Shown here piece after piece: positions 42,411-64,000 of a stretch of DNA of 64,000 nt. Location: NCBI GenBank assembly GCA_934394565.1, contig CAKRQV010000002.1, forward strand, positions 16,792 to 80,791, read 5' to 3'. Source of the stretch: an uncultured Lachnospiraceae bacterium. GTDB lineage: Bacteria > Bacillota > Clostridia > Lachnospirales > Lachnospiraceae. The translations under genes and the position numbers were made by a program. The notes beneath the pieces are model-generated. The model was not told the DNA's origin. It searched no databases and saw only the letters and a program-made list of their open reading frames with translations. The first letter of the stretch is position 1. Every line of letters starts with the position of its first letter.

Positions 42411-43040
42411 TCACCGCATGTCCGGCTTATGCTGACTGTTATCCTCCCCCAGTACCAGCTTCCATACATTATCACTCTGTCCGGTCGTGGCACATGTGCG
42501 TACACAGCAAGTCTCTGGCTGTATTCGGTATATATCTGTCTCGCAGAGTTGGATCTCTTCTTCTGTAGCCAGATCTGTCTTATTGATCAGTGTTACATCT
42601 GCGCAGGAAATCTGCCCTGTCAGCAACGTCTCCATAGGCTTGCGGATCCGTTTCCAGCGCTGGGCATCCACCACAGTGCAAATCCGGCAGTCTTTATTAC
42701 AGGCTGCTTTGAGATTATCCCGGATCAGACCCGGATAGGCCAGTCCTGTGGTTTCCAGGATCATCCAGTCCGGTGCATATGTTTCTTCTATATAAGATAC
42801 CGCCCGGATCAGTTCGCCGCCAACGGTGCAGCAGGCACAGCCCGCAAACAGATTTTCCACCTGAAAGCCTCTGTTTTTCAGCAGGGCATCATCTACGCCT
42901 TTATCACCAACCTCATTTTCAAGGATGATGACCCTGGGTGCATCCCCCTTTGTTGCCTCTCTGGCAAGGAAACGGGCCAGACCCATCAGCAGGGAGGTCT
43001 TTCCGGATCCTAAAAATCCACTTAAGATTACTACCTGCAT
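42411..43040 (-). CDS. COG0523/G3E-family (CobW-like) metallochaperone GTPase, N-terminal domain only
   Basis: The P-loop is GFLGSGKTSL, the CxCC motif is GCACCT, and NKTD is present. The protein is only 209 aa and has no CobW_C domain. Confidence 0.8.
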   Translation of the reverse strand: MQVVILSGFLGSGKTSLLMGLARFLAREATKGDAPRVIILENEVGDKGVDDALLKNRGFQVENLFAGCACCTVGGELIRAVSYIEETYAPDWMILETTGLAYPGLIRDNLKAACNKDCRICTVVDAQRWKRIRKPMETLLTGQISCADVTLINKTDLATEEEIQLCETDIYRIQPETCCVRTCATTGQSDNVWKLVLGEDNSQHKPDMR

Positions 43041-43122
43041 GATGTTCGCCTCCTTTTATCTGTTGCTTTTGCAGGCACGCTGTCCATTGACAACGTGCCT
43101 TTATCCATTCCCTTTATGCTTC

Positions 43123-44154: not shown

Positions 44155-44488
44155 CTGTGTTATCCTCCTTTTTACAGATTTGTGGCAGCCACAGCTTCCT
44201 CCCTGTCGGCTGTCCTTTTCCTTTCCTTTTCTGATAAGTCTATTATATCGTTTCACGTTCCGGATACTATGTACGGAAACTACAAGAAACGTATCAGCAA
44301 AATATCCATTTTTTGTAGATTTGTGCTCTACTTTTTTGTTAAAATTTTGTATACTATATAGGTACACTAGATATAGTGTGTGCAAAAACTACAGAGTGGT
44401 CATGAGCTGCCATGCAGCCATCAAAACATACATAAAACTGTCCACCGTATGTTCTCTGTATATAAAGGGACATAAAGGAGTCTGCAAT

Positions 44489-46072: not shown

Positions 46073-47485
46073 TTAGACCGGATATGCCTTATTTTCAGCA
46101 TCTGCTACAGTAGCATCTACCTTTGTTTTCTGTGCATCTCTGTACTTGAAGTACTCTGTAGCTACCTGCGGGAACAGAGCGTAGGTCAGTACATCCTCTT
46201 CCTGCTCTGCATACGGAGCAACCTCTTCTTTCAGCTTATCCAGCTGCGGCGGAATCAGATCAGCAGGACGACAGGTGATCGGTTCTACATCGCCGATGCA
46301 TTTCTTCTGTACTTCTTTGTTGAACGGTTTTACAGTAGCGCCGTATTTACCGCTTAAGACATCCTTTGTCTGCTGCGGAACCATCTTATAACGCTCACCC
46401 TGGATAACGTTCATAACAGCCTGTGTACCAACGATCTGGGAAGACGGTGTTACCAGCGGGCACTCACCAAGATCCTCACGCACACGCGGAACCTCTTCGA
46501 GTACCTGATAGTACTTGTCTTCTGCGCCAAGATCCTTTAACTGGCTGGTCAGGTTGGACAGCATACCACCCGGTACCTGATACAGCAGAGTCTTGATGTT
46601 TACACCCAGGTTCTTCGGATTTAACAGACCGCTCTCCAGAGCCTCGTCACGGATCGGACGGAAGTAATCTGCGATCTCAGCCAGCAGATTCTGGTCAAAT
46701 CCCGTATCATACGGTGTGCCCTTGAAGGTCTCTACCATAACCTCTGTTGCCGGCTGGGAGGTACCCAGGGCAAACGGAGACATAGCGGTATCGATCACAT
46801 CAACACCAGCTTCAACAGCTTTCAGGTATGTCATGGAAGCTACACCGGAAGTATAGTGTGTATGCAGCTGGATCGGGATGCTGACAGTCTCTTTCAGAGC
46901 CTGTACCAGCTCCGTTGCCTTGTACGGCAGAAGCAGACCGGCCATATCCTTGATACAGATGGAGTTAGCACCCATATCTTCGATCTTCTTGGCCATCTCT
47001 GTCCAGTACTCCAGAGTATACGGCTCACCCAGTGTATAGGAAAGAGCCACCTGTGCATGTCCTTTTTCTTTATTAGCTGCTGTAACGGCTGTCTGCAGGT
47101 TGCGGATGTCGTTTAAGCAGTCAAAGATACGGATGATATCGATACCATTGGCGATGGATTTCTGTACAAAGTACTCTACAACATCGTCAGCGTACTGGCT
47201 GTAGCCCAGGATATTCTGGCCTCTGAACAGCATCTGCAGCTTGGTGTTCTTAAAGCCGTCACGGAACTTACGAAGTCTGTCCCACGGATCTTCCTTCAGG
47301 AAACGAAGGGATGCATCGAATGTAGCACCACCCCAGCACTCTACGGAATGATAGCCGACTTTATCCAGTTTATCAACGATCGGAAGCATCTGCTCTGTTG
47401 TCATACGGGTGGCGATCAGAGACTGATGTGCGTCACGCAGAATGGTTTCTGTAATTTTAATTGGCTTTTTAGCGATTTCTGCCAT
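46073..47485 (-). CDS. Oxaloacetate decarboxylase alpha / transcarboxylase 5S-type carboxyltransferase (no biotinyl domain)
   Basis: It has ITETILRDAHQSLIATRMTTEQM and HTHYTSG. The protein is 470 aa and ends before any MKM biotinylation motif. Confidence 0.85.
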   Translation of the reverse strand: MAEIAKKPIKITETILRDAHQSLIATRMTTEQMLPIVDKLDKVGYHSVECWGGATFDASLRFLKEDPWDRLRKFRDGFKNTKLQMLFRGQNILGYSQYADDVVEYFVQKSIANGIDIIRIFDCLNDIRNLQTAVTAANKEKGHAQVALSYTLGEPYTLEYWTEMAKKIEDMGANSICIKDMAGLLLPYKATELVQALKETVSIPIQLHTHYTSGVASMTYLKAVEAGVDVIDTAMSPFALGTSQPATEVMVETFKGTPYDTGFDQNLLAEIADYFRPIRDEALESGLLNPKNLGVNIKTLLYQVPGGMLSNLTSQLKDLGAEDKYYQVLEEVPRVREDLGECPLVTPSSQIVGTQAVMNVIQGERYKMVPQQTKDVLSGKYGATVKPFNKEVQKKCIGDVEPITCRPADLIPPQLDKLKEEVAPYAEQEEDVLTYALFPQVATEYFKYRDAQKTKVDATVADAENKAYPV

Positions 47486-47510
47486 GATTAAACCTCCATA
47501 TTATTTGAAA

Positions 47511-48668
47511 TTAAACACCGAAGATAGCCATGAATGTACCGGCTGCTACTGCAGTACCGATAACACCGGCAACGTTCGGACCCATTGCATGCATCAGAAG
47601 GAAGTTTGTCGGATCTGCCTCAGCACCGACCTTCTGAGATACACGAGCTGCCATAGGAACGGCAGAAACACCGGCGGAACCGATCAGCGGATTGATCTTG
47701 CCGCCTGTAGCCTTGCACATGATCTTACCAAACAGCACACCACCTGCAGTACCGATAGCGAATGCGATCAGACCCAGGATAACGATCTTGATTGTCTGCA
47801 TGTTCAGGAAAGCCTCGGCACTTGTGGTAGCACCAACGGAAGTTCCCAGCAGAATAACAACGATATACATCAGGGCATTGGAAGCTGTCTCCTGCAGCTG
47901 CTTAACCACACCACTCTCGCGGAACAGGTTACCAAGCATCAGCATACCAACCAGCGGAGCTGTGGTCGGAAGCAGCATACAAACAACGATGGTGATAACG
48001 ATCGGGAAAAGGATCTTCTCCAGTTTGGATACCGGACGAAGCTGCTCCATCTTGATCTTGCGCTCTTTTTCTGTTGTCAGAAGCTTCATGATCGGCGGCT
48101 GGATGATCGGTACCAGGGACATATACGAATATGCCGCCACGGCGATCGGTCCCATCAGCCCCGTCTGTCCCAGCTTACCGGCAAGGAAGATAGAGGTCGG
48201 TCCATCGGCACCACCGATAATGGAGATCGCTGCAGCTGCCTTTCCGCCGAATCCCATAAAGATGGCGAAGAAGTAAGCGGCATAGATACCCAGCTGAGCT
48301 GCTGCACCAAGCAGAAAGCTCTTCGGGTTTGCGATCAGCGGACCAAAGTCAGTCATCGCACCGACACCCATGAAAATCAGGGACGGCAGGATACTGTATT
48401 CATCCAGAATATAGAAATAATGCAATAAGCCGGCTGCATGCTCGATACCATTTGCATCCACGTATGCTTCAGCCATGATATCCGGATAGATATTAACTAA
48501 AAGCATACCGAAAGCGATCGGTACCAGAAGCAGAGGCTCAAATCCTTTTTTGATTGCCAGATACAGAAAGACACAGGCTACGGCGATCATGATGTAGTTG
48601 CCTACAGTCAGATTCATAAAGGCAGTCTGCGCTAACAGATTTGACAAAGTGTTAGTCACATAAGACAT
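47511..48668 (-). CDS. Na+-translocating decarboxylase beta subunit (OadB/GcdB/MmdB)
   Basis: It is polytopic, with motifs GADGPT and [15 protein letters not shown]. Confidence 0.9.
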
Positions 48669-48706
48669 TTTTGTACCTCCATAGTAGTTTCAAGCAAGTG
48701 TTTGAA

Positions 48707-49069
48707 TTAGTTCAGTGTAGCCAGTGTATCGCCGTTTTCTACGGTATCACCAACAGCTACATTGATGCTTGCTACGGTACCATCCTGCGGAGCAACAACC
48801 GGGATCTCCATCTTCATGGATTCCAGAACAACGATGCTGTCGCCGGCCTTTACGGCCTGTCCTACGGTTGCTTCTACCTTGAATACTTTGCCCGGTACGG
48901 AAGCGCCTACGGTTACGGAACCAGCGCCTGCTGCTGCCGGAGCTGCTGCTGCTTTCGGAGCTGCCTTCGGTGCTGCCTTCGGAGCTGCCACCGGTGCACC
49001 GGATGTCTGTCCTTCTTCAACGGTTACATCATATACATTGCCATTTACTGTGATTGTATAGGTTTTCAT
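48707..49069 (-). CDS. Biotin carboxyl carrier protein (1.3S/MmdC/GcdC-like)
   Basis: It has an Ala/Pro-rich linker and the biotinylation motif LESMKMEIP. Confidence 0.85.
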   Translation of the reverse strand: MKTYTITVNGNVYDVTVEEGQTSGAPVAAPKAAPKAAPKAAAAPAAAGAGSVTVGASVPGKVFKVEATVGQAVKAGDSIVVLESMKMEIPVVAPQDGTVASINVAVGDTVENGDTLATLN

Positions 49070-49087
49070 TCTTAAATCCTCCTGTGA

Positions 49088-49825
49088 TTAGGCGTTGCGC
49101 CATTTGCTCTTATTGACTTTTTTGATGGAACGAACTACAAAGCTGTCTGTTGAAGTATTCTCAGCGGCTGCAATAGCGGCTGCGATAACAGCAACAAGCT
49201 CCAGATCATCTGTCTCCTCAACAACCGGTGCAGCTGCGGGAGCCGGTGCCGATGCCTTTTTCTCTTCTTTCTTGCCTTCGCCGGAAAGCTTGCCGACATA
49301 TTTAAACAGGGAAATCAGGCAGCTCAAGAAGATCAGAATAATAAATACGATGCCGACACCCATCACGGTATTTAATCCGGCACGTTCCAGAGATTCACCA
49401 AGACTGTACTCAGCCTCGAAAGTGATAGACTCCGGTGTAAAACTCTGGGATTCCATTTTCAGGGTCAGGGTAACGATCGCTGTTCTCTGCTCGAACTGTG
49501 CGATGGATGTTACGGTGTATTCCTTATCATCCACCTCAACCTCTGTGCTGTTCAACCCCTTATAAGCGCCAAGTTCATCCATAACGCCCTCAAAGTTTGT
49601 TACAGCTGCAACAGTAAAGGTATCGTCTACCTGCTCGTACTGCTTAAGCTCGTCAGCGGACATACCGCCCAAAGTAGCAAGCAGGGAATCCATCTGCTGC
49701 TCCATATAGCTCTGTGTCGTCTCATCAACGGCAGCTACATCAACAGAAGAACCACAGGCTGCCAGAGATGCCATACACAGGACGGCAATAACAACTGCCA
49801 GTAATCTTTTTGTTATCTTTTTCAT
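49088..49825 (-). CDS. OadG/MmdD-like decarboxylase small subunit fused to an N-terminal lipoprotein domain
   Basis: It has a lipobox (LAACGSS), a TM helix (GVGIVFIILIFLSCLISLF), an Ala/Pro linker, and the C-terminal motif LVAVIAAAIAAA...VVRSIKK. The ATG at 49825 follows a GAGGTG ribosome binding site. Confidence 0.6.
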   Translation of the reverse strand: MKKITKRLLAVVIAVLCMASLAACGSSVDVAAVDETTQSYMEQQMDSLLATLGGMSADELKQYEQVDDTFTVAAVTNFEGVMDELGAYKGLNSTEVEVDDKEYTVTSIAQFEQRTAIVTLTLKMESQSFTPESITFEAEYSLGESLERAGLNTVMGVGIVFIILIFLSCLISLFKYVGKLSGEGKKEEKKASAPAPAAAPVVEETDDLELVAVIAAAIAAAENTSTDSFVVRSIKKVNKSKWRNA

Positions 49826-49839
49826 CTGCTTCACCTCGC

Positions 49840-51276
49840 TTAAATCGTGCCGTGTTTTTTAGCCGGGCGATTTTCTCTCTTTGCGTAAAGCATCTCAAAA
49901 GCACCGATCACATATTTTCTTGTATCTTCGGGCTCAATGATCGTATCAACGTATCCACGTTTTGCTGCGGAAACGACGTTGGACTGCAGTGCTTCATATT
50001 CTGCTGCCTTCTCATTTAATGTCTGTGCGTCAGCACCGGCATACATGATGTTTGCAGCGGATTTGGCTTCCATCATGCCGACTTTGGCTTCCGGCCATGC
50101 GTATACCATGTCCGCACCGATGGATTTACTGTTCATAGCCACGTAAGCGCTTCCGAATGCTTCACCGATGATAACATTTACTTTCGGTACAGTAGCATCT
50201 GCGAATGCATAGGTCAGGGAAGCAACAGCTTTGGCAATATTGTGCTCGGAGCACTTGGTAGCCAGGAAGCCCTTAACATTTGTCAGGGTCAGAACCGGGA
50301 TATTGAAAGCGTCACAGAATTTAACGAACTCTGCTGCTTTCTTTGCTCCGCGCGGGGAAAGAACAGCGTCAAATTTCTCAGCGATCTCACCGTCATCACC
50401 AAATACGGCTGTTCTGTTGGCTACGGCACCGACTGTTGTACCATTGAGTTTCATGAAACCGGTTACCATGCTGGTACCGTAATCTGCTTTTGTCTCGAAG
50501 AAGATCTGGTCATCTGCGATACGGCTCAGTGCTACAGCTGTATCTGCTGCACAGTCTTTGATATCTGCACATACACGGTTCAGATCGTCTTCACAGCCTG
50601 TAAATGTATCGTCATCTACATTGTTGGCCGGAAGCAGGGAAACCAGGGCACGGATCTGTGCCAGGATATCTTCCTGTGTACCAACGTAGTCGATCAGTCC
50701 TGTCTCTTTGCTCTGGTAAGCTGCGCTGGCGGTATCACATTTGGATACTTCGTTGCCTTCGATGGCATTCGGAGAGTTGACAAATAACTTTGCGTCTTTC
50801 TCTTCCATAAATGTAAAGTCCGTCATGCCCGGTACTAAAGCAAGTCCGCCGCCACATGTACCAAAGACTGCGGTGATCTGCGGAATCACACCGGATGCTG
50901 CTGCCTGTTTCTGGTAGATCTCGCCCAGTGCATTTAATGCATCTGTAGCTTCCTGAAGACGAATACCTGCACAGTCGATCAGTCCGATCACCGGTGCTCC
51001 GGTCTTCATAGCGAAATCATACAGTCTGGCGATCTTCTTGGCATGCATCTCGCCGACAGTTCCGCCTAATACGGAAGCGTCCTGGCTGTAGACATAGACA
51101 AGATTGCCGTCGATCACACCGTAACCTGTGATAACGCCGTCAGAAGGAGTTTCCTTCTCAGACATATTGAAATCAGTTGCTCTGGCTGTAACCTGGCCGC
51201 CGATTTCAACAAAACTGTTGTCGTCAAGCAGAGAAGCAATTCTCAGGCTTGCTGCGCTTTGTGCTGTGTTACTCAT
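49840..51276 (-). CDS. Acyl-CoA carboxyltransferase (12S / MmdA / PccB-like)
   Basis: It has the carboxyl_trans domain (VITGYGVIDGNLVYVYSQDASVLGGTVGEMHAKKI). The length is 478 aa. Confidence 0.85.
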   Translation of the reverse strand: MSNTAQSAASLRIASLLDDNSFVEIGGQVTARATDFNMSEKETPSDGVITGYGVIDGNLVYVYSQDASVLGGTVGEMHAKKIARLYDFAMKTGAPVIGLIDCAGIRLQEATDALNALGEIYQKQAAASGVIPQITAVFGTCGGGLALVPGMTDFTFMEEKDAKLFVNSPNAIEGNEVSKCDTASAAYQSKETGLIDYVGTQEDILAQIRALVSLLPANNVDDDTFTGCEDDLNRVCADIKDCAADTAVALSRIADDQIFFETKADYGTSMVTGFMKLNGTTVGAVANRTAVFGDDGEIAEKFDAVLSPRGAKKAAEFVKFCDAFNIPVLTLTNVKGFLATKCSEHNIAKAVASLTYAFADATVPKVNVIIGEAFGSAYVAMNSKSIGADMVYAWPEAKVGMMEAKSAANIMYAGADAQTLNEKAAEYEALQSNVVSAAKRGYVDTIIEPEDTRKYVIGAFEMLYAKRENRPAKKHGTI

Positions 51277-51636: not shown

Positions 51637-53133
51637 TCAGATATCTTTGGCAAGACCGAAGCTGCGTCCTACGGCCTGTTTCCAGCCGCGGATGAGGAGA
51701 CTCATTTTCTTTGTATCCATCTGCGGATTGAACTCGTGGCCGAGCTGCCAGTTGGTTTTGATTTCTTCAATATCTTTATAGTAGCCTGTGGCAAGGCCGG
51801 CGAGGTAGGCAGCGCCAAGGGCTGTGGTTTCGTAGGTCTGGGGGCGCAGTACCGGTGACTGTAAGATATCAGACTGAAACTGCATGAGGAAATTGTTGGC
51901 GCTGGCACCACCGTCGGCTTTTAATGCGCGGATCTGGATACCGGATACTTCTTCCATGACAGCTACGAGATCGCTGACCTGGTAGGCCAGGGATTCTACT
52001 GTAGCACGGATCACATGGTCTTTATTGGTTCCTCTGGTGAGGCCGACCAGAACACCTCTGGCATAGGGATCCCAGTAAGGTGCACCAAGACCGGTAAAGG
52101 CCGGTACGAGATATACGCCGTTGGTATCTTCTACTGCCAGACAGTGTTCTTCACTCTCTGCAGCGGTCTGGATCAGTCCCATCTCGTCTCTGAGCCACTG
52201 GATCGCCGCACCGGCTACGAATACACTGCCTTCGAGGGCATACTGGATCTCGCCGCCAACACTTGCGGCGATTGTTGTCAACAGACCGTCCCTGGCTTCT
52301 ACGGCACGGTTGCCGGTATTCATCAGAAGGAAGCAGCCTGTACCATAGGTGTTTTTAACTTCTCCCGGTTCAAAGCAGCACTGGCCGAAAAGAGCCGACT
52401 GCTGGTCTCCTGCTGCTCCGGCGATCGGGATCGCACCGCCAAGGATATTTTCTCTCGTATAGCCGTAAATACAGCTGGACGGCTTTACCTCCGGGAGCAT
52501 GGACGCCGGGATATGCAGCTCGTCGAGGATCTTCTGATCCCAGCACAGCTTGTGGATATCAAACAGCATCGTGCGGGAAGCGTTGGTATAATCGGTCACA
52601 TGTACCGTGCCGCCGGTCAGCTTCCAGATCAGCCAGGTATCGACTGTACCGAATAAGAGATCGCCTTTCTCAGCTTTTTCTCTCGCACCTTCGACATGAT
52701 CCAGAATCCAGGCGATCTTTGTTGCTGAAAAATATGGATCTGGAATCAGACCGGTCGTTTTCTGTATATATTCGCCCAGTGCACTGTTTTTTAACTTTTC
52801 TGCCTGTGACGCTGTACGACGGCATTGCCATACGATGGCATTATATACCGGTTTCCCGCTTAAACGGTCCCAGACGATCGTCGTCTCTCTCTGGTTCGTG
52901 ATACCGATGGCAGCCACATTATCAGCGGTCACACCGATCTTACTCATGGCCTCTACTGCCACCGTCAGCTGGGAGGACCAGATCTCCATCGGATCATGTT
53001 CAACCCACCCGGCCTTCGGATAAATCTGCTGGTATTCCTTCTGGGCGCTGCTGCACACCTTACCGGACTTGTCAAAAAGAATAGCTCTGGAGCTTGTTGT
53101 TCCCTGATCCAGGGACAGTATGTATTCCCACAT
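51637..53133 (-). CDS. glpK: Glycerol kinase
   Basis: It starts [18 protein letters not shown] and shows GlpK homology along its full length. The ATG at 53133 follows a TGGAGGAA ribosome binding site. Confidence 0.95.
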
Positions 53134-53152: not shown

Positions 53153-54253
53153 TTAAATCTTTCCCTCTTTTTTTGCATAAGCCAGTATTTCCCGCAAGCC
53201 TTCTGCATATTCTCCGAGAGACTCTATATTCAAAGTATATATCACCTTATTGCACTTGTCTATCCATTTTTTGGCCCGTAAAACAGCCTCCTTACTTATC
53301 GGCTCAAACGGTGCTGTACTGATCGTTTCTTCTGCAAGTGCCATTGCTGAAGGATAATCCAGATCATTTTCCCACAATATCCCTGTCACAAAAGGAATAT
53401 TGTCTCTTTGCAGTCTTCGATAGATGGGTGTAGCGCTGCCATTGCCAGCGATCACAAACACCTTTGGTGTCCCCTGTACCCGCGCAAGCTCCAGATTTCC
53501 TGTTCTTTCTTCATATGTACCGGTTGTCATCTGATACAGCCTGGGAATATATCCTGCTGTAAAAATCTCTTCCGGAGTACCAAAGCGATCAATATGATCT
53601 CCTTTTACACACGCAATCTTATCAGAGATCCTGCCTGCCAGATCAAGCTCATGCAAAGACATGATCACAGACAGATTTCTTTTTCGTGACATGTTCTGTA
53701 TGATAGAGAGAAACTCCAGCTTGTAACGGATATCCAGAAAGGATGTAGGTTCATCCAGAACAATGATATCCGGCTGCTGGCAAAGCGCCCTGGCCAGCAT
53801 TACTCTTTGCTTTTGTCCATCGCTTGTTTTTGAAAAATCACGATCTGCCAGCGTATGTATTCCGACAAGCTCCATGGATTCCTCTACGATACTCTTGTCA
53901 CTCTCTGTCAGGACGCCGAATTTTCCGGTATACGGATAACGCCCGGTAGCCACAACCTCACGACACGTCATCATTTCCGGATGTATCCTTTCTGTCAATA
54001 CAACCGACAGATGTTTTGAAAGCTCTTGCCCTTCATACGTATCCATCGACTGACCATCGAGCACAGCCACTCCTCCCAATGGCTTTAGCTGCCGGATAAT
54101 ACTTCGGAGAATAGTTGTCTTTCCCGCACCGTTAGGGCCGATAAGCGTCAGGATCTCGCCTCTTTTTATCTGAAGACAGATATTCTGGATCAACGGTTTT
54201 CCATGATACCCCACAGTGAATCCTTCTGTATAAAAATAAAATTCGTCTTTCAT
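53153..54253 (-). CDS. Iron/cobalamin-type ABC transporter ATP-binding protein (BtuD/FepC-like) with a ~110-aa C-terminal extension
   Basis: Motifs are [18 protein letters not shown] and [12 protein letters not shown]. An additional C-terminal domain (...[39 protein letters not shown]...) belongs to no family I recognise. Confidence 0.85.
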
Positions 54254-54257
54254 AGGC

Positions 54258-55271
54258 TTATGCTTCCTTTTCTTTTCTGCGATGCACCATGATATATATA
54301 ACAACCGGAGCACCAAATACAGCGGTCACTGTACTGATGGATAGCTCCGTTGGTGAAAAAAGGGTTCGTGCCAAAAGATCACAAAAAAGACAAAATACCG
54401 AACCGCCCAGAAAGCAGGCAGGAATCATCAGAATCGGTTTCGCCGTTTTAAACAGATTTTTAACCAGATGCGGCACTGCAATACCCACAAAAGAGACCGG
54501 CCCGGCAAATGCTGTCACACAGGCAGACAAAATACTTGACAAAAGCACCAAAAGCACTCTGAAGCGCTGTACATTCAATCCCATGTTTCTTGCATAGGCT
54601 TCTCCCATCTGATAGGCGCTCAACGGCTTTGACATCAAAAACACCCCAACCGACGTTACCAGAATCACGATCGCCATAACAGATACATTCTGCCATGTAA
54701 TCCCGGAAAAGCTTCCCTTTGACCAGTTATGCAGATTTACAATATCCGCATCATCCGCAAAAGTCACCACAAAATCTGTAATTGCCGAACAGATATAGCC
54801 GATCATGACACCACTTACGATCAGCATAGCCATCTGATCCATCACCCTTGACATCAGAATCACAAAGCCCATGCAAAGCATGGCACCTGCAAAAGCCGCC
54901 AGGATCATAACCCATGAGCTCAGTGTAAGGGCATTTCCCAGTGCAGCTACCATGACAAGCGCTACGACAAGCTTTGCCCCTGAAGAAATACCCAGCGTAA
55001 ACGGGCCCGCAATCGGATTATGAAAAAATGTCTGTAAAAGATATCCTGACAAAGCCAGTCCACCACCAAGGATTGCTGCCGCAAGTGCTCTGGGATATCT
55101 GATCTGCATCACAATGTCCGTATATGTTTCATCCTGTCCGGCACCAAGTAAAATGGCCGGGATATCCTTAAATGGCACATTGACACTGCCAATGCAGATA
55201 TTTAACAGGATCAGGAACACCAGAAGTATGCAAAGTAAAGTATAGGCCGCAAAATATCTGTGTTTTTTCAT
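54258..55271 (-). CDS. FecCD-family ABC permease (BtuC-like)
   Basis: It is polytopic, with RYPRALAAAILGGGLALSGYLLQ. Confidence 0.9.
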   Translation of the reverse strand: MKKHRYFAAYTLLCILLVFLILLNICIGSVNVPFKDIPAILLGAGQDETYTDIVMQIRYPRALAAAILGGGLALSGYLLQTFFHNPIAGPFTLGISSGAKLVVALVMVAALGNALTLSSWVMILAAFAGAMLCMGFVILMSRVMDQMAMLIVSGVMIGYICSAITDFVVTFADDADIVNLHNWSKGSFSGITWQNVSVMAIVILVTSVGVFLMSKPLSAYQMGEAYARNMGLNVQRFRVLLVLLSSILSACVTAFAGPVSFVGIAVPHLVKNLFKTAKPILMIPACFLGGSVFCLFCDLLARTLFSPTELSISTVTAVFGAPVVIYIMVHRRKEKEA

Positions 55272-55274
55272 GTT

Positions 55275-56417
55275 TTACTCCAGTCTGTATAAATACACCA
55301 GATCCGCATCATCGTTTTCCAGCATACGGTGGATATCACCGGTAATCGTACCCAGCGACATCGTGGACTGGTAGAGGTTTTTTGTTGTACAGTACACATG
55401 GCCTTCCTGCACGGCTTTGCATTTCTGCAAAAGCGGGCTTTTCGCCAAAAGGTCCTCCAGCGTGTCCAGTTCTCCGTCTATCGTACTGTTATAGATCATA
55501 TAATCCGCATCTTTTGCTTTTGCATAGAATTCTTCCATCTGCATGGAGATCGTAGACGTTGCTTCTGCATCTTTACCCAGATCCTCAAAGATATACTTTC
55601 CGCCCGCATCTTCGATCATTTTTGGCAGATAGTCCGACGATTTTCGTACATTTACTTCTCCATTGCTTGTTACATAGAAAAAGGCCACTGTCTTGCCTGT
55701 TTTATCCGTATTTCCCACTTTTGCAAAGGCTTCTTCTTCTCTTTCAAAGGCTTTTTCTGCTTCTTTCTCATGATCCGTCAGAAGTCCATACAGCTTCACC
55801 CATTCCGTTCTTCCAAGCGGTTCCGGCTCATAGCTGGATCTGTCCACCAAGACGGCGATATTGAAGCGTTCCAGCTGTTCCTGCACCTCCGGGCTGTGAC
55901 CGATCATTGTGTTTTCTATTGCCAGGCTGCAGTTTTCTGCACGAATCATTTCATAATCCGGCGCAGAATACTTTCCGGCATACAAAATATCCCCTCTTTG
56001 CATGGCTTCTCTGGCCTCCGGTATGTACCAATTGTCTGCCTGAAGCCCGCTGAAGCGTATCGTATCAAGAGCATCCAGCGAAACAAACATATCCATAACC
56101 GCGGAAGCTACCAGGTACATATTTTTGAGAGGCTTTTGCAGCACTGTAATATCCTCTGAAAGATCTTTTGGCGCCTTTTTTCCCTCTGGAACCACCAGAT
56201 ACCGGCTGCCATCTGCAATTGTTATAAGAGCATACCCGTCTTCGTAATAATCCACAGCAAACTCTTTTGCATAGGATGTTTCCAGACTGCTTGTATATGT
56301 CAGGCTGCTACTTACCGCAGTATCCCTGTTTTCAATGGTTTTGTTTTCTTTGGCACCACAGGCAGTCAAAAGCCCCACCAATAAAACTGCCAGTAAGACC
56401 ATTCTCTTTTTCTTCAT
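55275..56417 (-). CDS. Periplasmic-binding-protein type 2 substrate-binding lipoprotein (BtuF-like)
   Basis: It has a lipobox (LLTACGA) and a Peripla_BP_2-like layout. It sits in the B12-riboswitch operon. Confidence 0.8.
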   Translation of the reverse strand: MKKKRMVLLAVLLVGLLTACGAKENKTIENRDTAVSSSLTYTSSLETSYAKEFAVDYYEDGYALITIADGSRYLVVPEGKKAPKDLSEDITVLQKPLKNMYLVASAVMDMFVSLDALDTIRFSGLQADNWYIPEAREAMQRGDILYAGKYSAPDYEMIRAENCSLAIENTMIGHSPEVQEQLERFNIAVLVDRSSYEPEPLGRTEWVKLYGLLTDHEKEAEKAFEREEEAFAKVGNTDKTGKTVAFFYVTSNGEVNVRKSSDYLPKMIEDAGGKYIFEDLGKDAEATSTISMQMEEFYAKAKDADYMIYNSTIDGELDTLEDLLAKSPLLQKCKAVQEGHVYCTTKNLYQSTMSLGTITGDIHRMLENDDADLVYLYRLE

Positions 56418-56863
56418 ACTTTCTTTTTCCTTCTATTTTTTCCTATCACAACTGCTGCAGTCACTACAGCACACACAAGGAAAATCCCTCCAAACAATAT
56501 TCCTGTATTCCTGTCCGACGCTTTTGCAGGTTTTACAGAGGCAGAGGCAAATGTAAGTGTGTACTCGATCTCATGCGGAATACTCATCGCTGTAGTGTCT
56601 GCTGTAACTGGTATAGCCTCATCAAATGCCGAAACCGGTACCTCGAACACAGAATTCCCCTCTGTATTTACAGGCAGCAGTTTTTCATCCTTCACCACCA
56701 TATAGTCATAGTGAGAGCTGCTCCATTCAATCCGCGCGATTTTTTCTCCCGACTGTACTGTAAGCTCTGCCGGTGATGTGATACCTGCTCTTCCAGATCC
56801 TCCCTCAAGCTGTACATCCACTGTATATAAGCCATCTTCAAGCTGCAGATTTTCACTTTCCAT
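56414..56863 (-). CDS. Hypothetical protein with a C-terminal TM anchor; paralog of the 56978-57553 domain
   Basis: The ATG at 56863 follows a GAGGAGAAGG ribosome binding site. It has LEDGLYTVDV...ELTVQSGEKIARIEWSS...FEVPVSAFDE. The C-terminal helix is followed by KNRRKKKV. There is no N-terminal signal peptide. Confidence 0.5.
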   Translation of the reverse strand: MESENLQLEDGLYTVDVQLEGGSGRAGITSPAELTVQSGEKIARIEWSSSHYDYMVVKDEKLLPVNTEGNSVFEVPVSAFDEAIPVTADTTAMSIPHEIEYTLTFASASVKPAKASDRNTGILFGGIFLVCAVVTAAVVIGKNRRKKKV

Positions 56864-56977
56864 AGTCCTTCTCCTCTTCGTCCGGATAAGTTTCCGGAGC
56901 GATGTATCCTCTTTTAGTAGTAAAGGCTGCTGCAAAACATGTCCTCATGCTGCAGCAGCCTTTGTAGATTCTGTATT

Positions 56978-57553
56978 TTAGTCTTCCAACGGCACAGGAT
57001 TCGACACAGAAACCTTATGATCATACCAGGTTCCCTTTGTTCCTATAAGTGCCAGATCAAACTCTTCATCCAATGCCGGAACCGGCACATCAAATCCATA
57101 CACTTCTTCTGTTGTGCCATCCTCGTATGTCACTGTATCAGTCGTCGGCTCTAGTAGCTGTGCACCATCCTTTTTTGCATCCTTGGCAAGACCGGCATAC
57201 AGATTCACGATTTTTTTGGAAGACAGTGAGATATGTATCGTCATCTGTCCGTCCTTTACCGTCAGTCTGCCTACACCGTCACATGCCTCATTTACATGGA
57301 ACATGCTGCTGTCTGTATCAAACGCTGCAGAATATACACCATCCTCCAGTGCAGCTGCTGTATTATCCGTCGGTGCACTCTCATCAACAGGAGCTATGTC
57401 ACTTGTTACGCCGGAGGACTCTGCCTCTGTTGTCTGAGAACCTGTCGCCTTAGATGCTTCTGCCTGTGTTTTGTCCTGCTGTCCGCCACAACCGGCTAGC
57501 ACGGTCAGGCCCAAGGTTGCTGCAGTCATCAGTATAGCTATCCTTTTTTTCAT
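56978..57553 (-). CDS. Lipoprotein of unknown function; paralogous domain to 56414-56863
   Basis: It has a lipobox (LAGCGG) and a low-complexity linker, followed by LEDGVYSAAFD...RLTVKDGQMTIHISLSS...FDVPVPALDEE. Confidence 0.55.
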   Translation of the reverse strand: MKKRIAILMTAATLGLTVLAGCGGQQDKTQAEASKATGSQTTEAESSGVTSDIAPVDESAPTDNTAAALEDGVYSAAFDTDSSMFHVNEACDGVGRLTVKDGQMTIHISLSSKKIVNLYAGLAKDAKKDGAQLLEPTTDTVTYEDGTTEEVYGFDVPVPALDEEFDLALIGTKGTWYDHKVSVSNPVPLED

Positions 57554-57576
57554 AAAATACAAGTCCGTCCTTTACT

Positions 57577-58866
57577 TTATTTCATTGCCTCAGCTGTGTG
57601 AGCAACATAGATATCCTGAATAGCCTTGATCTGTCCAAGACCTTCGATCTGCACATCTACATTTTCAAACTTACCGGAAGCTTTGAACTGGCTTAACCAG
57701 GAATCATCATCATCGCCAGCCATATCGTTGTTTGCATGATCACCGGCAACAACCATCAGCGGACGAAGGATAACCTTTGTATAACCGGCTTCGGCTACTT
57801 TTTCGATAACAGCTTCACAAGCTGTGTCTTCCGGCTCGCCCTCTACTGTACCGATAAATACATTATCATAGCCAAGCTCCTGCATCTGTGTCTGCATCTG
57901 GCTGTATGTAATCTTTGCTGTATGAGATGTACCATGTCCCATAAATACAAAAGCTGTCTTGTCTTCCTTAACAGCATCCAGAGAATCATAACCGGCTGTC
58001 TTTACAGCTTCTGCTGTGATAGCCTCTGCTGCGGCTTTCTTGTCGTCGTTGATTGCGGAAGCATCAGCTCCAACCTCGCCAAGGAGCGGCTCAGCTACTT
58101 TTACAGACTCAAATTTGTCTTTATAAGAATCCACAGCCTCCATCAGCTCATCATACTCCGCACCATGCATCAGATGTGTCGGCTGTACAACCAGATTTTT
58201 TACACCATTTGCTACTGCACGATCAAGTGCCTGATCCATATTATCGATATGCTCATCGTCTCTTGCCTGCACATGATTGATGATGATCTGTGCTGTAAAT
58301 GCACGTCTGACAGACCAGTCCGGATAAGCTGCCTGCAGCGCATCCTCAACACCCTTGATATCCTCTGCACGGCTATCGTTAAAGGACGTACCAAAGCTTA
58401 CGACCAGGAGTTCATTTTCACCGATATCATCCCCGTTGCGCGGATCATCCTTGGAAGCATCGCCGGTATCTCTGCCAAAATAATCCGGATCTGCCTCTTC
58501 TCCTTCAACCATCTCTTTCTGCGCATCTGTCAGTGCATCCCATGCTTCTTTTGCTTCCTTACACTGTGCATCTGTGTTCTCGGTTCTTTCCTGTACATAG
58601 ATCGCATCGATCAGCTCTGCCACATGATCAGCTGCGGCTTTGTCAGCATCTTCCTCAGTTGCAGATGCTTCAGCAGCTGCAGATGCTGTTTCTGTGGCTG
58701 CCGTACTTGACTCCGCTGCAGCAGAAGCAGTCTCTGACTGTGCTGCACTCTCAACCGGTGTCGAAGATACTGCGGTGCTTGAAGAAGCATTGCCTCCACA
58801 GCCAACGATCATGGATGCTGTCAAAGCACCTACACACAATACTGTTGCAAATTTTCTCTTCATCAT
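57577..58866 (-). CDS. Lipoprotein homolog of sirohydrochlorin cobaltochelatase CbiK (predicted extracytoplasmic)
   Basis: It has a lipobox (MIVGCGG) and a Ser/Ala/Thr/Glu-rich linker. The CbiK core follows: LLVVSFGTS, VVQPTHLMHGAEYDEL, FVFMGHGTSH, LRPLMVVAGDHANNDMAG. The ATGATG start at 58866 follows a GGGAGGA ribosome binding site. Confidence 0.75.
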   Translation of the reverse strand: MMKRKFATVLCVGALTASMIVGCGGNASSSTAVSSTPVESAAQSETASAAAESSTAATETASAAAEASATEEDADKAAADHVAELIDAIYVQERTENTDAQCKEAKEAWDALTDAQKEMVEGEEADPDYFGRDTGDASKDDPRNGDDIGENELLVVSFGTSFNDSRAEDIKGVEDALQAAYPDWSVRRAFTAQIIINHVQARDDEHIDNMDQALDRAVANGVKNLVVQPTHLMHGAEYDELMEAVDSYKDKFESVKVAEPLLGEVGADASAINDDKKAAAEAITAEAVKTAGYDSLDAVKEDKTAFVFMGHGTSHTAKITYSQMQTQMQELGYDNVFIGTVEGEPEDTACEAVIEKVAEAGYTKVILRPLMVVAGDHANNDMAGDDDDSWLSQFKASGKFENVDVQIEGLGQIKAIQDIYVAHTAEAMK

Positions 58867-58943
58867 TTTCTTATCCTCCCGAAAAATGATTAATGTATTA
58901 TGCATACATAAACCACACATAGACGGGAGTCAATGAAATGTGA

Positions 58944-59043
58944 CAACTATGAGAAACACTCTGTGCGATTTTCGCAAGATATCGCGGCAGTCGCCAAGGT
59001 CTCACGCAAGCACGGACTTTGGCTCGTTGCTCGCATAAAAAAA
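58944..59043. repeat. Dispersed ~100-nt repeat, copy 2 (copy 1 is at 30450-30552)
   Basis: It has the same core, ATCGCGGCAGTCGCCAAGGTCTC...GCACGGACT.TGGCTCGTTGC. It lies between the riboswitch terminator and the first gene of the operon. Confidence 0.8.
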
Positions 59044-59067
59044 TCCAACGCAAAAAAGCGCTGGATT
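59035..59067 (-). terminator. Intrinsic terminator (expression platform of the cobalamin riboswitch)
   Basis: On the minus strand, AATCCAGCGC-TTTTTT-GCGTTGGATT is followed by T7. Confidence 0.65.
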
Positions 59068-59094
59068 GAGTGTATCTGTCCTCATTCGGTACAA

Positions 59095-59300
59095 TCAATC
59101 CTCGTGATCTGGAATATCGCATTCCCCGTACCACAGTCTGGCAGGTCTCCTGGCTCACAGCTACGCATACAACCGCCTTCCCGATAGGATCAGTGACATA
59201 TATGGCCGTATACTTCTGCTTACAGTGACGAGATCGCGCAGGATTCTCACCTGCTTCCCTATTCTCCGCCTTATACAGGCGGCACCAGCTGTTTCTTATG
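59095..59300 (-). promoter_or_regulatory. Cobalamin (B12) riboswitch
   Basis: The minus strand contains GGTGCC...AATAGGGAAGCAGGTGAGAATCCTGCGC...CACTGTAA and the B12 box GCCAGGAGACCTGCC. Confidence 0.85.
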
Positions 59301-59324
59301 CAGTTTTATGTATCCATTAGCTGC

Positions 59325-59352
59325 ATTATAGCACTCTTTGTTAAAAATTCAA
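59325..59352 (-). promoter_or_regulatory. Promoter of the riboswitch-controlled operon (TTGAAT-16-TGcTATAAT)
   Basis: An extended -10 element was read on the minus strand, about 25 nt upstream of the riboswitch. Confidence 0.55.
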
Positions 59353-59403: not shown

Positions 59404-60612
59404 CTATACACTTACAATAGACTGAACAAAATGCTGAAAAACCTGCCGGAAACACCACAAAAGCGAAACCCTGTACACATCCTGCCTAAGCTGTATTCTG
59501 CTTTTTTTTATGCACTGCCCGCCAAGCCAGTACCTTACCTCCCCGCAGTCCATCCCCGCAGCTGCAGGCGCTTCCAAAGTGCTGACATAACGATACGTGG
59601 CGCGTATGGTTTCTTCCGTTCCCAGCAATACTGTGGTCACTGACTTTTCCGGTACTTCTGTAAGCCAAACCTTCGGATTTCTTTTTTCTCCCCATCCATA
59701 CACTGCACCCTCGGCCGGTATCTCTGCCTCAAATTGCAAGGGCACAATCGTATGCAATCTATAATTCTCTTTGCCATATTGCAAAAGCGTCAGTGCATCC
59801 TTCCATTTCCATGTTTTGTTTCCCGGCCATCCACAGCCAAGCAACGCAATTACAAAGGTACGGCCTTCGCTCTTTACTGCACAGACATAACAGTATCCTG
59901 CATCATTTGTAAATCCTGTCTTTCCGCTTAAAACGCCTTTCGTCATCCGTAAAAACTGATTATGGTTTGTACAGCTGTAATTCATCTGTCCTTCCAGATC
60001 CGAAAAGCTGTGGTTTTCCTTCTGCGTAATTGCAAGAAACTGCTCTGCCTGTAAAGACTGTCCTGTACAGTAGCGCATAATAGCAGCCAGATCAGCAGCT
60101 GTTGTGTGATGTGTCCCTTTTGCATCTTTGGCATCCAACCCATTCGGTGTAATAAAATATGTGTTCTCACAGCCAAGCTCTTTTGCTTTTTCATTCATCC
60201 GCCGGGCAAAGGCTTCCACTGAACCATCCAGATGCTCTGCCAGCATCACCGCTGCATCGTTATAGGATTCCAGCATCAGGGCATATAAAAGATCCTTTAA
60301 CAGAAACCTTTGGCCCTTTTGCACTCCCAGACGCACCTTTGGCTGCTTTACGGCATTTTGCGAAGCGATCACGGTCTCTGTCAGATCACAGTTTTCCAAA
60401 ATAAGGATACAGGTCATGATCTTTGTCGTACTGGCCATGGCCATTTCCTGTGTTTCATTTTTTCCATATAAAATACGCCCGCTGTCCCCGTCCATCAGAC
60501 AGGCTCCGCGGGCGTACAGCCGGCCGGGATCCGTCTGGGCAGCCCGGCAGTTTATACATACCATATACTCGAGAAAAACCAGAACGCACAGCGCTGTTAC
60601 CAGTTTTTTCAT
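59404..60612 (-). CDS. Serine-type D-Ala-D-Ala carboxypeptidase (S11, PBP5-like)
   Basis: It has a signal peptide and the motifs SxxK (ASTTKIMT), SxN (LESYND) and KTG (GKTGFT). The ATG is at 60612. Confidence 0.85.
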   Translation of the reverse strand: MKKLVTALCVLVFLEYMVCINCRAAQTDPGRLYARGACLMDGDSGRILYGKNETQEMAMASTTKIMTCILILENCDLTETVIASQNAVKQPKVRLGVQKGQRFLLKDLLYALMLESYNDAAVMLAEHLDGSVEAFARRMNEKAKELGCENTYFITPNGLDAKDAKGTHHTTAADLAAIMRYCTGQSLQAEQFLAITQKENHSFSDLEGQMNYSCTNHNQFLRMTKGVLSGKTGFTNDAGYCYVCAVKSEGRTFVIALLGCGWPGNKTWKWKDALTLLQYGKENYRLHTIVPLQFEAEIPAEGAVYGWGEKRNPKVWLTEVPEKSVTTVLLGTEETIRATYRYVSTLEAPAAAGMDCGEVRYWLGGQCIKKSRIQLRQDVYRVSLLWCFRQVFQHFVQSIVSV

Positions 60613-60656
60613 GGTTTTTCCTTTCACCTTTTATTGCAGCTATATAGCCTTATTCT

Positions 60657-63262: not shown

Positions 63263-64000
63263 CTATGCCTCTGCACCTGACGTCTGCGGCTGTTCTTTAT
63301 GCAGCAGTTTGTCATACAGTTCCCTCAGGCAGTCCTGCCAGGTTTTCTTTTCCACATCCTCTGTAAGCACCAGCTCCATTTGTCCAATCTGCTGTCCCTG
63401 CAGAGTATATATGACTTTTCCCACGCTGTCGCCCTTCTGCAGCGGTGCTGTAAGCTCTTCCGAAAACTGATATGTCTTTTCAACAGCAGATATATCTGAT
63501 TTTTTCGTATCCAGCCAGGTAAAATCCTGCGGCATCCGGGCCTGATAGCTGCCCCTTTTTGCCCCGGCAATTTGCGGGCATTCCACAGTCTGCGCAGAAT
63601 CTGTATACAGATGACAGAGACCAAAGCCATATGTCAGGAGGGATGCCGCATCTCTAAACCGTTCTTTGGATGTCTCGCCGCCAAGGATCACAGCAATCAT
63701 TGTCAGGTCATCCCTTTTGGCCACTTCGCTGACACAATAGCCCGCCCGCGAGGTACTGCCAGTTTTCAGTCCGATACATCCATCGTAGCTACGCAGTAAC
63801 TTATTAGTATTCGTCAATGTAAAGGTGCTGTCCCCACGACGGGTATGATGGGTAATATCCTCCATCCATACAGTTGAATATCCAAAAAGCTCCGGGAAAC
63901 GAAGAACCAGCTCCCGGGATACCACGGCAATATCTCCTGCAGACATATAATGTGCTGCATCATCCGTCAGACCACAGCAGTCCACAAAATGGGTATGTTC
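63263..64000 (-). CDS. Serine-type D-Ala-D-Ala carboxypeptidase, 3' part only (the N-terminus lies beyond the window end)
   Basis: It has the KTG motif (LKTGSTSRAG) and a PBP5 C-terminal beta domain. The reading frame is open to the window edge. Confidence 0.75.
   Translation of the reverse strand, partial: EHTHFVDCCGLTDDAAHYMSAGDIAVVSRELVLRFPELFGYSTVWMEDITHHTRRGDSTFTLTNTNKLLRSYDGCIGLKTGSTSRAGYCVSEVAKRDDLTMIAVILGGETSKERFRDAASLLTYGFGLCHLYTDSAQTVECPQIAGAKRGSYQARMPQDFTWLDTKKSDISAVEKTYQFSEELTAPLQKGDSVGKVIYTLQGQQIGQMELVLTEDVEKKTWQDCLRELYDKLLHKEQPQTSGAEA

Follow-up and report, generated by a model that had tools for sequence, protein, structure and literature searches.

In the stretch of DNA analysed here (the window), 64,000 nucleotides (nt) of contig CAKRQV010000002.1 (positions 16,792 to 80,791, assembly GCA_934394565.1) from an uncultured Lachnospiraceae bacterium, six genes at 53153-59352 stand behind a cobalamin riboswitch and form an operon that is probably an undescribed Gram-positive uptake system for B12-type cobalt tetrapyrroles. 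The operon encodes an exported CbiK-like chelatase (K), two proteins with diverged NEAT folds (A and B), and the substrate-binding lipoprotein (SBP), permease and ATPase of an ATP-binding cassette (ABC) importer. Judged from homology, the components match an Isd-type heme relay with an exported chelatase added, and in regulation and neighbourhood the operon belongs with the B12 regulon. The system can be classed as an Isd-like relay attached to an importer of the BtuFCD class and brought under B12 control, and it is very widespread in the dominant gut Firmicutes. The specific proposal that we favour, with about as much doubt as confidence, is that the operon is a B12-repressed, Isd-like surface relay that would capture corrinoids for a type II ABC importer.

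Gene families were assigned by Pfam and NCBIfam profile searches and the riboswitch by Rfam cmscan. The operon lies entirely on the minus strand, and coordinates are those of the whole window. Its features are:

59352 to 59325, minus strand: promoter-like TTGAAT-16-TG-TATAAT, 10/12 consensus matches, TG before the -10 element
59301 to 59123, minus strand: cobalamin riboswitch aptamer RF00174, 105 bits against a gathering threshold of 31.5, E 3e-25, model positions 1-189 of 189
59154 to 59140, minus strand: B12 box GCCAGGAGACCTGCC, read directly in the sequence
59033 to 59067, minus strand: intrinsic terminator AATCCAGCGC-TTTTTT-GCGTTGGATT and then TTTTTAT, with a 10-bp stem, a 6-nt loop and a T-run
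58866 to 57577, minus strand: g1 (K), 429 amino acids (aa), CbiK PF06180 E 4e-74, lipobox IVGC
57553 to 56978, minus strand: g2 (A), 191 aa, lipobox LAGC, no Pfam or NCBIfam family
56922 to 56963, minus strand: stem-loop in the g2-g3 spacer, spacer folding -39.9 kcal/mol, z -5.96
56863 to 56414, minus strand: g3 (B), 149 aa, weak NEAT match
56417 to 55275, minus strand: g4 (SBP), 380 aa, Peripla_BP_2 PF01497 E 2e-31, lipobox LTAC
55271 to 54258, minus strand: g5 (permease), 337 aa, FecCD PF01032 E 3e-82
54253 to 53153, minus strand: g6 (ATPase), 366 aa from the ATG at 54253, ABC_tran PF00005 E 2e-30

The first-pass annotation of this DNA had proposed a cobalamin riboswitch with B12 box and terminator, followed by six co-oriented, tightly packed genes of which the first encodes a CbiK-homologous lipoprotein, and each of these points holds. 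The aptamer, one of just two Rfam matches within the window, is matched by the model over its full length, and the columns of the B12 box were invariant in an alignment of seven riboswitches. The terminator hairpin is positioned between the aptamer and g1, a layout that would be expected of the usual transcription-terminating "off" switch on ligand binding. The promoter-like site 24 nt upstream of the riboswitch start is a consensus match alone, and the count of such sites in the region was not above shuffle expectation. The gaps between the six genes range from -4 to 23 nt, save for one 114-nt spacer between g2 and g3, and the start of g4 overlaps the stop of g3 (ATGA). The true start of g3 is MESEN..., since its homologs are 149-152 aa in length.

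The same arrangement recurs far outside the window. A B-domain profile scan of one genome per GTDB species gave confirmed matches in at least 593 species, with 1639 clusters at 50% identity in the family, and 80 loci were fetched as 20-kb stretches. These are from Lachnospiraceae, Oscillospiraceae, Ruminococcus, Faecalibacterium, Anaerovoracaceae and Peptococcaceae, and also from Coriobacteriaceae/Atopobiaceae, the operons nearest to that of the window being found in Lachnospiraceae such as Hominisplanchenecus, Candidatus Merdisoma and Lachnoclostridium sp. An131. Gene order was taken from translated open reading frames (ORFs) searched with the window proteins and with the A and B profiles. 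The order riboswitch-K-A-B-SBP-permease-ATPase was near-universal among the fetched loci, an arrangement that is far beyond chance. Rfam (RF00174) placed a riboswitch about 2 kb upstream, on the same strand, in six of the first seven loci, and the covariance model built from these copies and then applied to all 80 loci found it in 63, that is, in 63 of the 75 whose upstream sequence was long enough. Rfam likewise gave no riboswitch in nine related loci that have a long upstream flank; the association of riboswitch and operon is strong but not absolute. The earlier suggestion that the three upstream genes go together with this importer is upheld: the shared gene order and the riboswitch frequency mark them as a conserved and co-regulated module of it. 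One fetched locus (L077, CAVIPV010000132.1) is labelled Prevotella sp., on a 7.7-kb contig with a Firmicutes-typical K-A=B-SBP arrangement and lipoprotein-type anchors, and is probably a mis-binned contig, not a Gram-negative occurrence. The Candidatus Merdisoma locus also has a lysine riboswitch (RF00168, 105 bits; L001:5891-6062, plus strand) 1.7 kb upstream of the cobalamin one, belonging to a neighbouring but separate unit.

Fusions tie the surface proteins to one another and to the importer. Domains A and B are encoded in a single ORF in 61 of the 80 loci and split as in the window in 11, with B alone (or the contig cut) in the remaining 8. The fused A-B proteins mostly end without a membrane anchor, and the split B proteins always carry a C-terminal transmembrane helix and a basic tail. 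Some loci lack K and A (L027, L038 and L065), with domain B kept even in these minimal versions. In five loci A, B and the SBP form one lipoprotein ORF of about 665-710 aa (L022:3934-6069, L056:9332-11410, L057:2908-4989, L064:9305-11326 and L066:7655-9664), which provides a Rosetta-stone argument for ligand hand-off. Further SBP fusions, as well as proteins with 4-5 repeats, occur among the 1639 representatives. Of the five triple-fusion loci only L022 has a riboswitch; it is absent from the other four (confirmed by Rfam for L057, L064 and L066), and CobQ, CobU and/or CobS lie downstream in three of these. Giant relatives of 880-1600 aa with 4-5 B-type domains (P0266, P0269, P0302, P0323, P0324, P0381 and P0386) recall multi-NEAT hemophores such as IsdX2, and ten long multi-domain relatives showed no fusion to known B12-binding domains.

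Sequence searches of g2 and g3 against the PDB gave no match, and profile searches gave a marginal IsdX1 match for B (E 0.16) and a signal-peptide artefact (5cyb) as the only match for A, so that fold comparison was needed for both proteins. In A, the lipobox is followed by a disordered linker to about residue 65 and a NEAT-fold domain at residues 70-188, over which the AlphaFold 2 model has a predicted local distance difference test score (pLDDT) above 90; its Foldseek matches in the PDB include Hbp2 NEAT-N2 (4myp, E 1.2e-4) and the streptococcal heme-transfer protein Shp (2q7a, E 2.5e-4). B consists of a NEAT-fold domain at residues 10-105 (pLDDT about 90 over residues 11-110), a C-terminal transmembrane helix and a KNRRKKKV tail, and was matched by Foldseek to IsdX1 (3sik, E 2.6e-5, TM 0.73) and also to IsdX2-N5, Hbp2-N2, IsdB-N2, IsdH-N3 and IsdA. 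More than 40 NEAT chains beyond IsdX1 are on the list for B, and for both proteins the matches are almost all NEAT domains, the models having the eight-stranded immunoglobulin-like beta-sandwich of that fold. The Pfam NEAT profile PF05031 scores B at 16.7 bits, below its gathering threshold of 32.8, and does not match A. Some relatives do exceed the threshold: P0265 scores 55 bits, and precomputed PF05031 matches exist on many fused homologs. Taken together, the NEAT folds, the sub-threshold scores and the relatives that pass indicate that A and B are strongly diverged NEAT domains. B had been called a membrane-anchored paralog of the domain in A. The kinship stands at the level of profiles, where hhalign aligned the two with a probability of 95% (E 2e-8) and marks them as distant paralogs, but not at the level of BLASTP, which gave only an insignificant 10-residue match between g2 and g3. 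Both families are large and uncharacterised, with at least 8000 homologous clusters at 90% identity for A and at least 4788 for B, and many homologs are a single lipoprotein of about 300 aa in which an A-type domain precedes a B-type one.

Neither protein has the canonical NEAT heme-site motifs, namely YxxxY in the last strand and SxxxxY in the 3-10 lip. In the alignment to IsdX1, the lip of B between the first strands is six residues shorter and lacks SxxxxY, and the last strand has an invariant P96-H97-E98...Y101 (PHExxY, hence HxxxY) where NEAT domains have YxxxY. The last strand of A has an invariant W176-Y177-D178-H179 (YxxxV), and its lip reads S82-S83-M84-F85-H86. Equivalence of these residues to heme-site positions was taken from strand order rather than from structural superposition. 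Since hhalign found no alignment between the B profile and an IsdA NEAT sequence, the correspondence of H97/Y101 to YxxxY likewise depends on strand position.

The two proteins appear to be anchored by different means, A by its lipobox and B by its transmembrane helix and basic tail, with no LPXTG or NPQTN sortase signal of the Isd kind. The proposal that g3 encodes a membrane-anchored surface protein is sustained for the anchor, the C-terminal helix being present, and less so for the surface: g3 has no N-terminal signal peptide, and the exposure of B outside the cell is inferred from the helix and the KNRRKKKV tail. A signal-less split-type B of 149-152 aa is found in the window and also in L001, L004, L005, L012, L013 and L020. 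In this subfamily a basic tail follows the C-terminal helix, and by the positive-inside rule the acidic NEAT-like domain of about 115 aa would lie outside. Other split B proteins (L002, L014, L015, L023, L038, L072 and L075) have a signal peptide. Sortase anchoring of g3 was considered and rejected, there being no conserved motif before the helix (DRNTG, DKNTG and SERIGG in close homologs).

Expression of A and B as a single product by read-through or frameshifting was also rejected. Although g2 and g3 are in the same frame, they are separated by two stop codons and a strong hairpin, and g3 has its own Shine-Dalgarno sequence; close relatives of the window operon also keep the two genes split. 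The A-B spacers of all six split-type loci tested (L001-L004, L020 and L072) contain an inverted repeat with stems of 10-18 nt that are 72-100% complementary. Since these repeats are of unrelated sequence, it seems to be the structure and not the sequence that is conserved, and the g2-g3 stem-loop could act on mRNA stability or, by partial termination, set the ratio of A to B.

The importer genes g4 to g6 had been described as BtuF-, BtuC- and BtuD-like, and the first of these labels needs correction, g4 being closer to IsdE-type heme binders than to solved BtuF. Compared with solved structures, the g4 family profile matched Listeria Lmo2184 (5joq, E 1.7e-8, aligned over the C-lobe only), which we take to be the IsdE-type heme binder of the srtB locus. 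No solved BtuF was found at E<=1 with this profile and no BtuF model matched, and the NCBIfam IsdE model gave weak matches in 21 of 36 g4 family members. Lmo2184 has a His at position 229, which the alignment places in an insertion opposite the YNS-T conserved in the g4 family, and the Met78 region did not align; 229 is the residue number of the axial heme ligand His of IsdE, its equivalence in Lmo2184 being assumed and not mapped. For the permease and the ATPase the labels survive in part. The best NCBIfam model for g5 is BtuC (NF003001, 218 bits, cut-off 334) and that for g6 is the archaeal "corrinoid ABC transporter ATPase" (NF007082, 197 bits, cut-off 537), both matches falling below the curated cut-offs. 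The g6 protein has a C-terminal extension of about 110 aa, into which the NF007082 match (residues 33-360) reaches. The operon therefore has the class features of BtuFCD, i.e. a cobalamin riboswitch, a type II FecCD permease and an ABC ATPase, at scores below those of the BtuC, BtuD and BtuF equivalogs.

In K, the lipobox is followed by an acidic, Ser/Thr/Ala-containing linker, a helical segment and a chelatase domain at residues 152-428. The nearest solved structures are Salmonella enterica CbiK (1qgo), Porphyromonas gingivalis FetB (9b86) and the periplasmic CbiK of Desulfovibrio vulgaris (2xvx). By alignment to 1qgo, H311, E342 and H377 of K correspond to H145, E175 and H207 of CbiK, and all three were invariant in 71 of 71 homologs from related operons. 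K thus has the CbiK fold and profile and the catalytic His, Glu and His of a class II chelatase. It departs from a cytoplasmic B12-pathway enzyme in being exported and in scoring 191 bits with the CbiK equivalog NF047852, under the cut-off of 400. A lipobox is present in 60 of 69 K homologs and the other nine have an N-terminal hydrophobic signal-like segment (seven by a hydrophobicity filter, L025 and L036 by eye). The invariant residues together with the export signals indicate that K is a protein of chelatase type that is exported and that has an active site kept by selection.

Neighbouring ORFs were clustered and the cluster identities confirmed with NCBIfam. The largest clusters were CbiF, CobQ/CbiP, CobU, CbiC, CobS, CbiD, CobD, CbiH and CbiB, with regulators and sugar ABC genes also common; heme-degradation families did not occur among the common neighbour clusters of the related loci. 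In 36 of 76 loci at least one cbi/cob gene lay no farther than about 4 kb away. The late or salvage genes CobQ-CobU-CobS are directly downstream in eight loci, including the K-less L038 and L065 (Roseburia), whose layout is riboswitch-B-SBP-permease-ATPase, and genes for the corrin ring are directly downstream in 11. In one of these, from a Faecalibacterium metagenome-assembled genome (MAG; L074), the unit reads riboswitch-K-A=B-SBP-permease-[ATPase::CbiD]-CbiL-CbiF-CbiG-CbiH-CbiJ-CbiET. The in-frame fusion in this unit, in which the g6-type extension is replaced by full-length CbiD (cobalt-precorrin-5B methyltransferase), occurs in five loci (L008:10117-12030, L041:12497-14389, L059:10210-12156, L074:12798-14741 and L079:9613-11529) with record titles of Coriobacteriaceae, Clostridia, Lachnospiraceae and, twice, Faecalibacterium. 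To our knowledge, no other transporter ATPase is fused to a corrin-ring enzyme. The same-strand flanks of the 11 ring-synthesis loci encode TP_methylase (30), CbiG (10), CbiJ (9), CbiD (6) and CbiC (2), with neither CbiK/CbiX nor CbiM/N/Q in two or more members in the flanks of these 20-kb loci, and a second CbiK within 20 kb was found only in L043. The operon of the window itself has no cbi or B12 genes flanking it.

Cobalamin riboswitches control corrinoid and cobalt uptake, B12 synthesis and B12-independent isozymes (PMC545781), and A and B (NEAT folds), K (class II chelatase) and g4 (a chelate-binding SBP class) are all of tetrapyrrole-binding types. Under the corrinoid-capture proposal, low intracellular cobalamin would allow transcription past the riboswitch terminator, and K and A, held by lipid, and B, held by its C-terminal helix, would be made and kept outside the membrane. 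A and B would then bind the cobalt tetrapyrrole, probably through axial His or Tyr residues of the last strand (H97-x-x-x-Y101 in B and Y177-x-H179 in A), and pass it to the IsdE-like binding lipoprotein g4, which would dock on the importer formed by the FecCD permease (g5) and the ABC ATPase (g6). The captured ligands may be complete cobamides and/or incomplete ones such as cobinamide and cobyric acid. The least certain step concerns K, which with its complete chelatase site may act on or hold the same class of ligand at the surface. We favour this proposal since it fits the riboswitch, the salvage-gene neighbours, the A-B-SBP fusions and the departures from heme-type sites. The first-pass annotation had likewise suggested a surface capture or remodelling module; a conserved, B12-linked capture module is consistent with the riboswitch, the gene order and the fusions, and nothing supports remodelling. 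That annotation had treated A and B as unknown domains and had named a match to a well-characterised heme or siderophore family as grounds for abandoning a role in B12 uptake. At the level of fold such a match now exists, the models being those of NEAT, a well-characterised family of heme receptors. A B12-related role is nevertheless not refuted by it, since the regulation and context are specific to B12 and the canonical heme-ligand positions differ. The NEAT and IsdE-like parts suggest instead that an Isd-type relay has been re-deployed, rather than that a set of orphan domains has been assembled.

Several observations weigh against corrinoid capture. The NEAT domains, the IsdE-like SBP and the CbiK/FetB-type chelatase are all closest by homology to heme or porphyrin binders rather than to a B12 binder of any known kind. 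No similarity of g4 to solved BtuF was detected, and the BtuC and corrinoid-ATPase matches stay under their curated cut-offs. The NEAT pocket is sized for a planar porphyrin and may not admit the nucleotide loop of a cobamide. The signal peptide is absent from g3, and 12 of the 75 evaluable loci are without a riboswitch. Finally, mere capture does not need the invariant catalytic triad of an exported K, and the module heads 11 corrin-ring operons without another CbiK or CbiX nearby, which fits the uptake of a precursor better.

It is these last two features that open the strongest alternative, a possible one that the first-pass annotation had not considered and to which we give distinctly less weight than to corrinoid capture. 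Here K would insert Co2+ outside the cell into a metal-free tetrapyrrole, and the relay would import a planar cobalt-tetrapyrrole precursor. The substrate would be sirohydrochlorin/factor II, released by cells or present in the gut, or another porphyrinoid, and the product would enter B12 synthesis at CbiL. The NEAT-like domains would bind this product by an axial ligand as heme is bound in Isd, and cobalt acquisition and the chelatase step would be one. Such a role would account for the triad conserved in all 71 exported K proteins, for the L074 unit that runs from riboswitch and K into the ring-synthesis genes, for the ATPase::CbiD proteins of five loci and for the scarcity of CbiK/CbiX and CbiM/N/Q around the 11 ring-synthesis loci. 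All binding parts are of metalloporphyrin-binding types, a NEAT domain can take a Co-porphyrin (PDB 3qzp, among the Foldseek matches), and in vitro FetB, an exported homolog, metalates porphyrin with Co and Mn (PMC13065792). The operon, however, has no exporter for a metal-free precursor, the scheme requires an extracellular source of one, and a cytoplasmic chelatase or cobalt transporter could sit outside the 20-kb loci. We know of no report of sirohydrochlorin as an environmental metabolite. Furthermore, the K-less L038 and L065 adjoin the late-step CobQ-CobU-CobS genes, which fits corrinoid salvage, and the operon of the window is not adjacent to cbi genes. It is reportedly common (Rodionov, 2003) for a B12 transporter of Gram-positives to be embedded in a cob operon, and adjacency alone therefore does not discriminate. 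Faecalibacterium is a B12 auxotroph in vitro (PMC7360928), and we had considered whether the full operon in such an auxotroph excludes precursor import; this argument was dropped since the MAG loci L074 and L079 head a complete corrin-ring operon. The fullest form of the alternative, in which CbiK would metalate an extracellular "cobaltophore" that the NEAT/IsdE-type relay imports straight into the CbiL-to-CbiC pathway, sometimes by way of the ATPase::CbiD fusion, is somewhat more doubtful still.

An ordinary Isd-type system for heme or iron, in which K would handle heme iron as proposed for IhtB/FetB and D. vulgaris CbiK and the link to B12 would be secondary, is unlikely. It would offer an account of the NEAT folds (with P0265 passing the Pfam threshold), of an SBP nearest to Lmo2184/IsdE, of a K close to "heme-binding protein FetB" and D. 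vulgaris CbiK(P), of the NCBI name "iron transporter" for one fused homolog and of the 12 evaluable loci without a riboswitch. It fits poorly with a cobalamin riboswitch kept across many families, for which heme uptake offers no rationale, and with the cbi/cob context, in which heme-degradation families are absent from the common neighbour clusters and CbiD is found fused to the ATPase. In B the SxxxxY lip is missing and the axial Tyr is replaced by His, the His at position 229 of Lmo2184 (by assumption equivalent to the axial ligand of IsdE) is not conserved in g4, and there is no sortase signal. In addition, FetB had no reverse (dechelating) activity on hemin (PMC13065792). That g4-g6 would be a plain BtuFCD importer accompanied by passengers, with K, A and B serving some unrelated surface role such as adhesion or redox, is very improbable given the A-B-SBP triple fusions, the gene order kept over at least hundreds of species, the retention of B in minimal versions and the tetrapyrrole-binding folds of all three proteins, even though BtuFCD alone suffices for B12 uptake in Bacillus subtilis (PMC9600662) and some loci lack K and A.

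Set beside the known NEAT relays, namely IsdABCH-IsdEF of Staphylococcus aureus, IsdX1/X2 of Bacillus anthracis and Hbp1/2-Lmo2184 of Listeria, the operon shares NEAT-fold surface receptors encoded beside an IsdE-type lipoprotein and a FecCD-type ABC importer. As in those systems, several NEAT domains may be in one protein, and a tetrapyrrole would be passed through the wall to the transporter. It differs from them in being controlled by a cobalamin riboswitch, whereas Isd is controlled by Fur (Fur boxes were not searched for here), and in anchoring its proteins by lipid or a transmembrane helix rather than by sortase. The window proteins are also below the Pfam NEAT threshold, B has a shortened lip and HxxxY in place of YxxxY, the position-229 His of Lmo2184, assumed to be equivalent to the axial ligand of IsdE, is not conserved in the SBP, and the neighbours are cbi/cob genes, with no IsdG-type heme oxygenase and with an exported CbiK added. 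With BtuFCD of Escherichia coli, B. subtilis (btuFCDR), Thermotoga and Halobacterium, the operon has in common a B12-riboswitch-controlled type II importer with a Peripla_BP_2 SBP. Unlike these, its SBP is dissimilar to solved BtuF, its scores are sub-equivalog and three extra exported proteins are conserved.

K resembles D. vulgaris CbiK(P) (2xvx) and P. gingivalis FetB/IhtB (9b86) in that all three are exported class II chelatases whose metal site is intact. FetB/IhtB is encoded together with a TonB receptor and an ABC transporter. Those two proteins are Gram-negative, periplasmic or of the outer membrane, have no NEAT partners and are discussed for heme and iron, whereas K, a lipoprotein of Gram-positives, has a long linker and is always accompanied by NEAT-like domains. 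A B12 element in Desulfovibrio places cbiK-cbiL and btuCDF under common control (PMC545781). The riboswitch-controlled surface lipoproteins BtuG, BtuH, BtuJ/DUF4465 and BtuK, which act with BtuB in Bacteroidota (PMC13616437, PMC8941943), are a functional analogy. The view that BtuG and BtuH are unrelated to this operon is confirmed, in that the BtuG beta-propeller, the BtuH C-terminal domain and DUF4465 had no Pfam or NCBIfam match in the operon proteins and the folds differ: a NEAT beta-sandwich and a chelatase versus a beta-propeller and DUF4465, with neither an outer membrane nor a TonB-dependent transporter. A 2026 review calls extracellular cobamide capture in Gram-positive Firmicutes "entirely uncharacterized" (PMC13616437), and a 2014 census of NEAT domains, which makes no mention of cobalamin, reported none that were new from the Human Microbiome Project (PMC4143258). 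In a full-text literature search we found no paper that links NEAT domains to cobalamin or cobamides or that describes this system, in agreement with the earlier statement that the three upstream proteins belong to no described B12 uptake system of Firmicutes.

Beyond the operon, a glycerol kinase gene (FGGY, 51637-53133, minus strand) runs on the strand of g6 and has its probable start (MWEYIL...) some 20 nt past the stop codon of that gene. The junction has no terminator-like site, and the only promoter-like match, a weak one (53262-53234), lies inside the 3' end of g6. Read-through from the riboswitch operon into the glycerol kinase gene is possible. Upstream are housekeeping genes, with two Peptidase_S11 D-alanyl-D-alanine carboxypeptidases (59404-60627 and 63263-63985, both minus strand) bracketing scpA-scpB and a metallophosphoesterase. 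At 40686-44385 (minus strand) two URO-D-family proteins flank a GTPase of the CobW/HypB/UreG family, with a divergent PucR-type regulator at 44180-45949 (plus strand). The URO-D family includes MtaA/MtbA-type methylcobamide methyltransferases, and the cluster may encode a methyltransferase system that depends on corrinoids; a gene for a corrinoid protein was not identified at 40686-44385. A carboxyl transferase, an OAD gamma-like protein, an OAD beta Na+-pump subunit and a PYC_OADA/HMGL-like subunit at 46073-51276 (minus strand) form a membrane decarboxylase of the oxaloacetate/methylmalonyl-CoA decarboxylase type. In propionate producers a pathway of this kind operates next to the B12-dependent methylmalonyl-CoA mutase.

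Lachnospiraceae, Oscillospiraceae and their relatives are the dominant Gram-positive bacteria of the gut, where competition for corrinoids shapes the community. The operon is a concrete and very widespread candidate for extracellular corrinoid capture in such bacteria, present in at least 593 species. In public annotation its homologs are named "hypothetical protein", "iron transporter" or plain CbiK; the importer may therefore be mislabelled as an iron system, and exported CbiK homologs may be miscounted as biosynthetic chelatases when B12 producers are predicted from genomes. If it is instead a precursor that is imported, the chelation step of anaerobic B12 synthesis could occur outside the cell, which would be new biochemistry, merging cobalt acquisition and the committed chelation in one extracytoplasmic reaction and giving NEAT domains a non-heme natural ligand. 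If A and B do bind corrinoids, these would be a second class of natural ligand for NEAT domains, and the Isd paradigm would reach from the theft of heme by pathogens to the scavenging of a vitamin by commensals.

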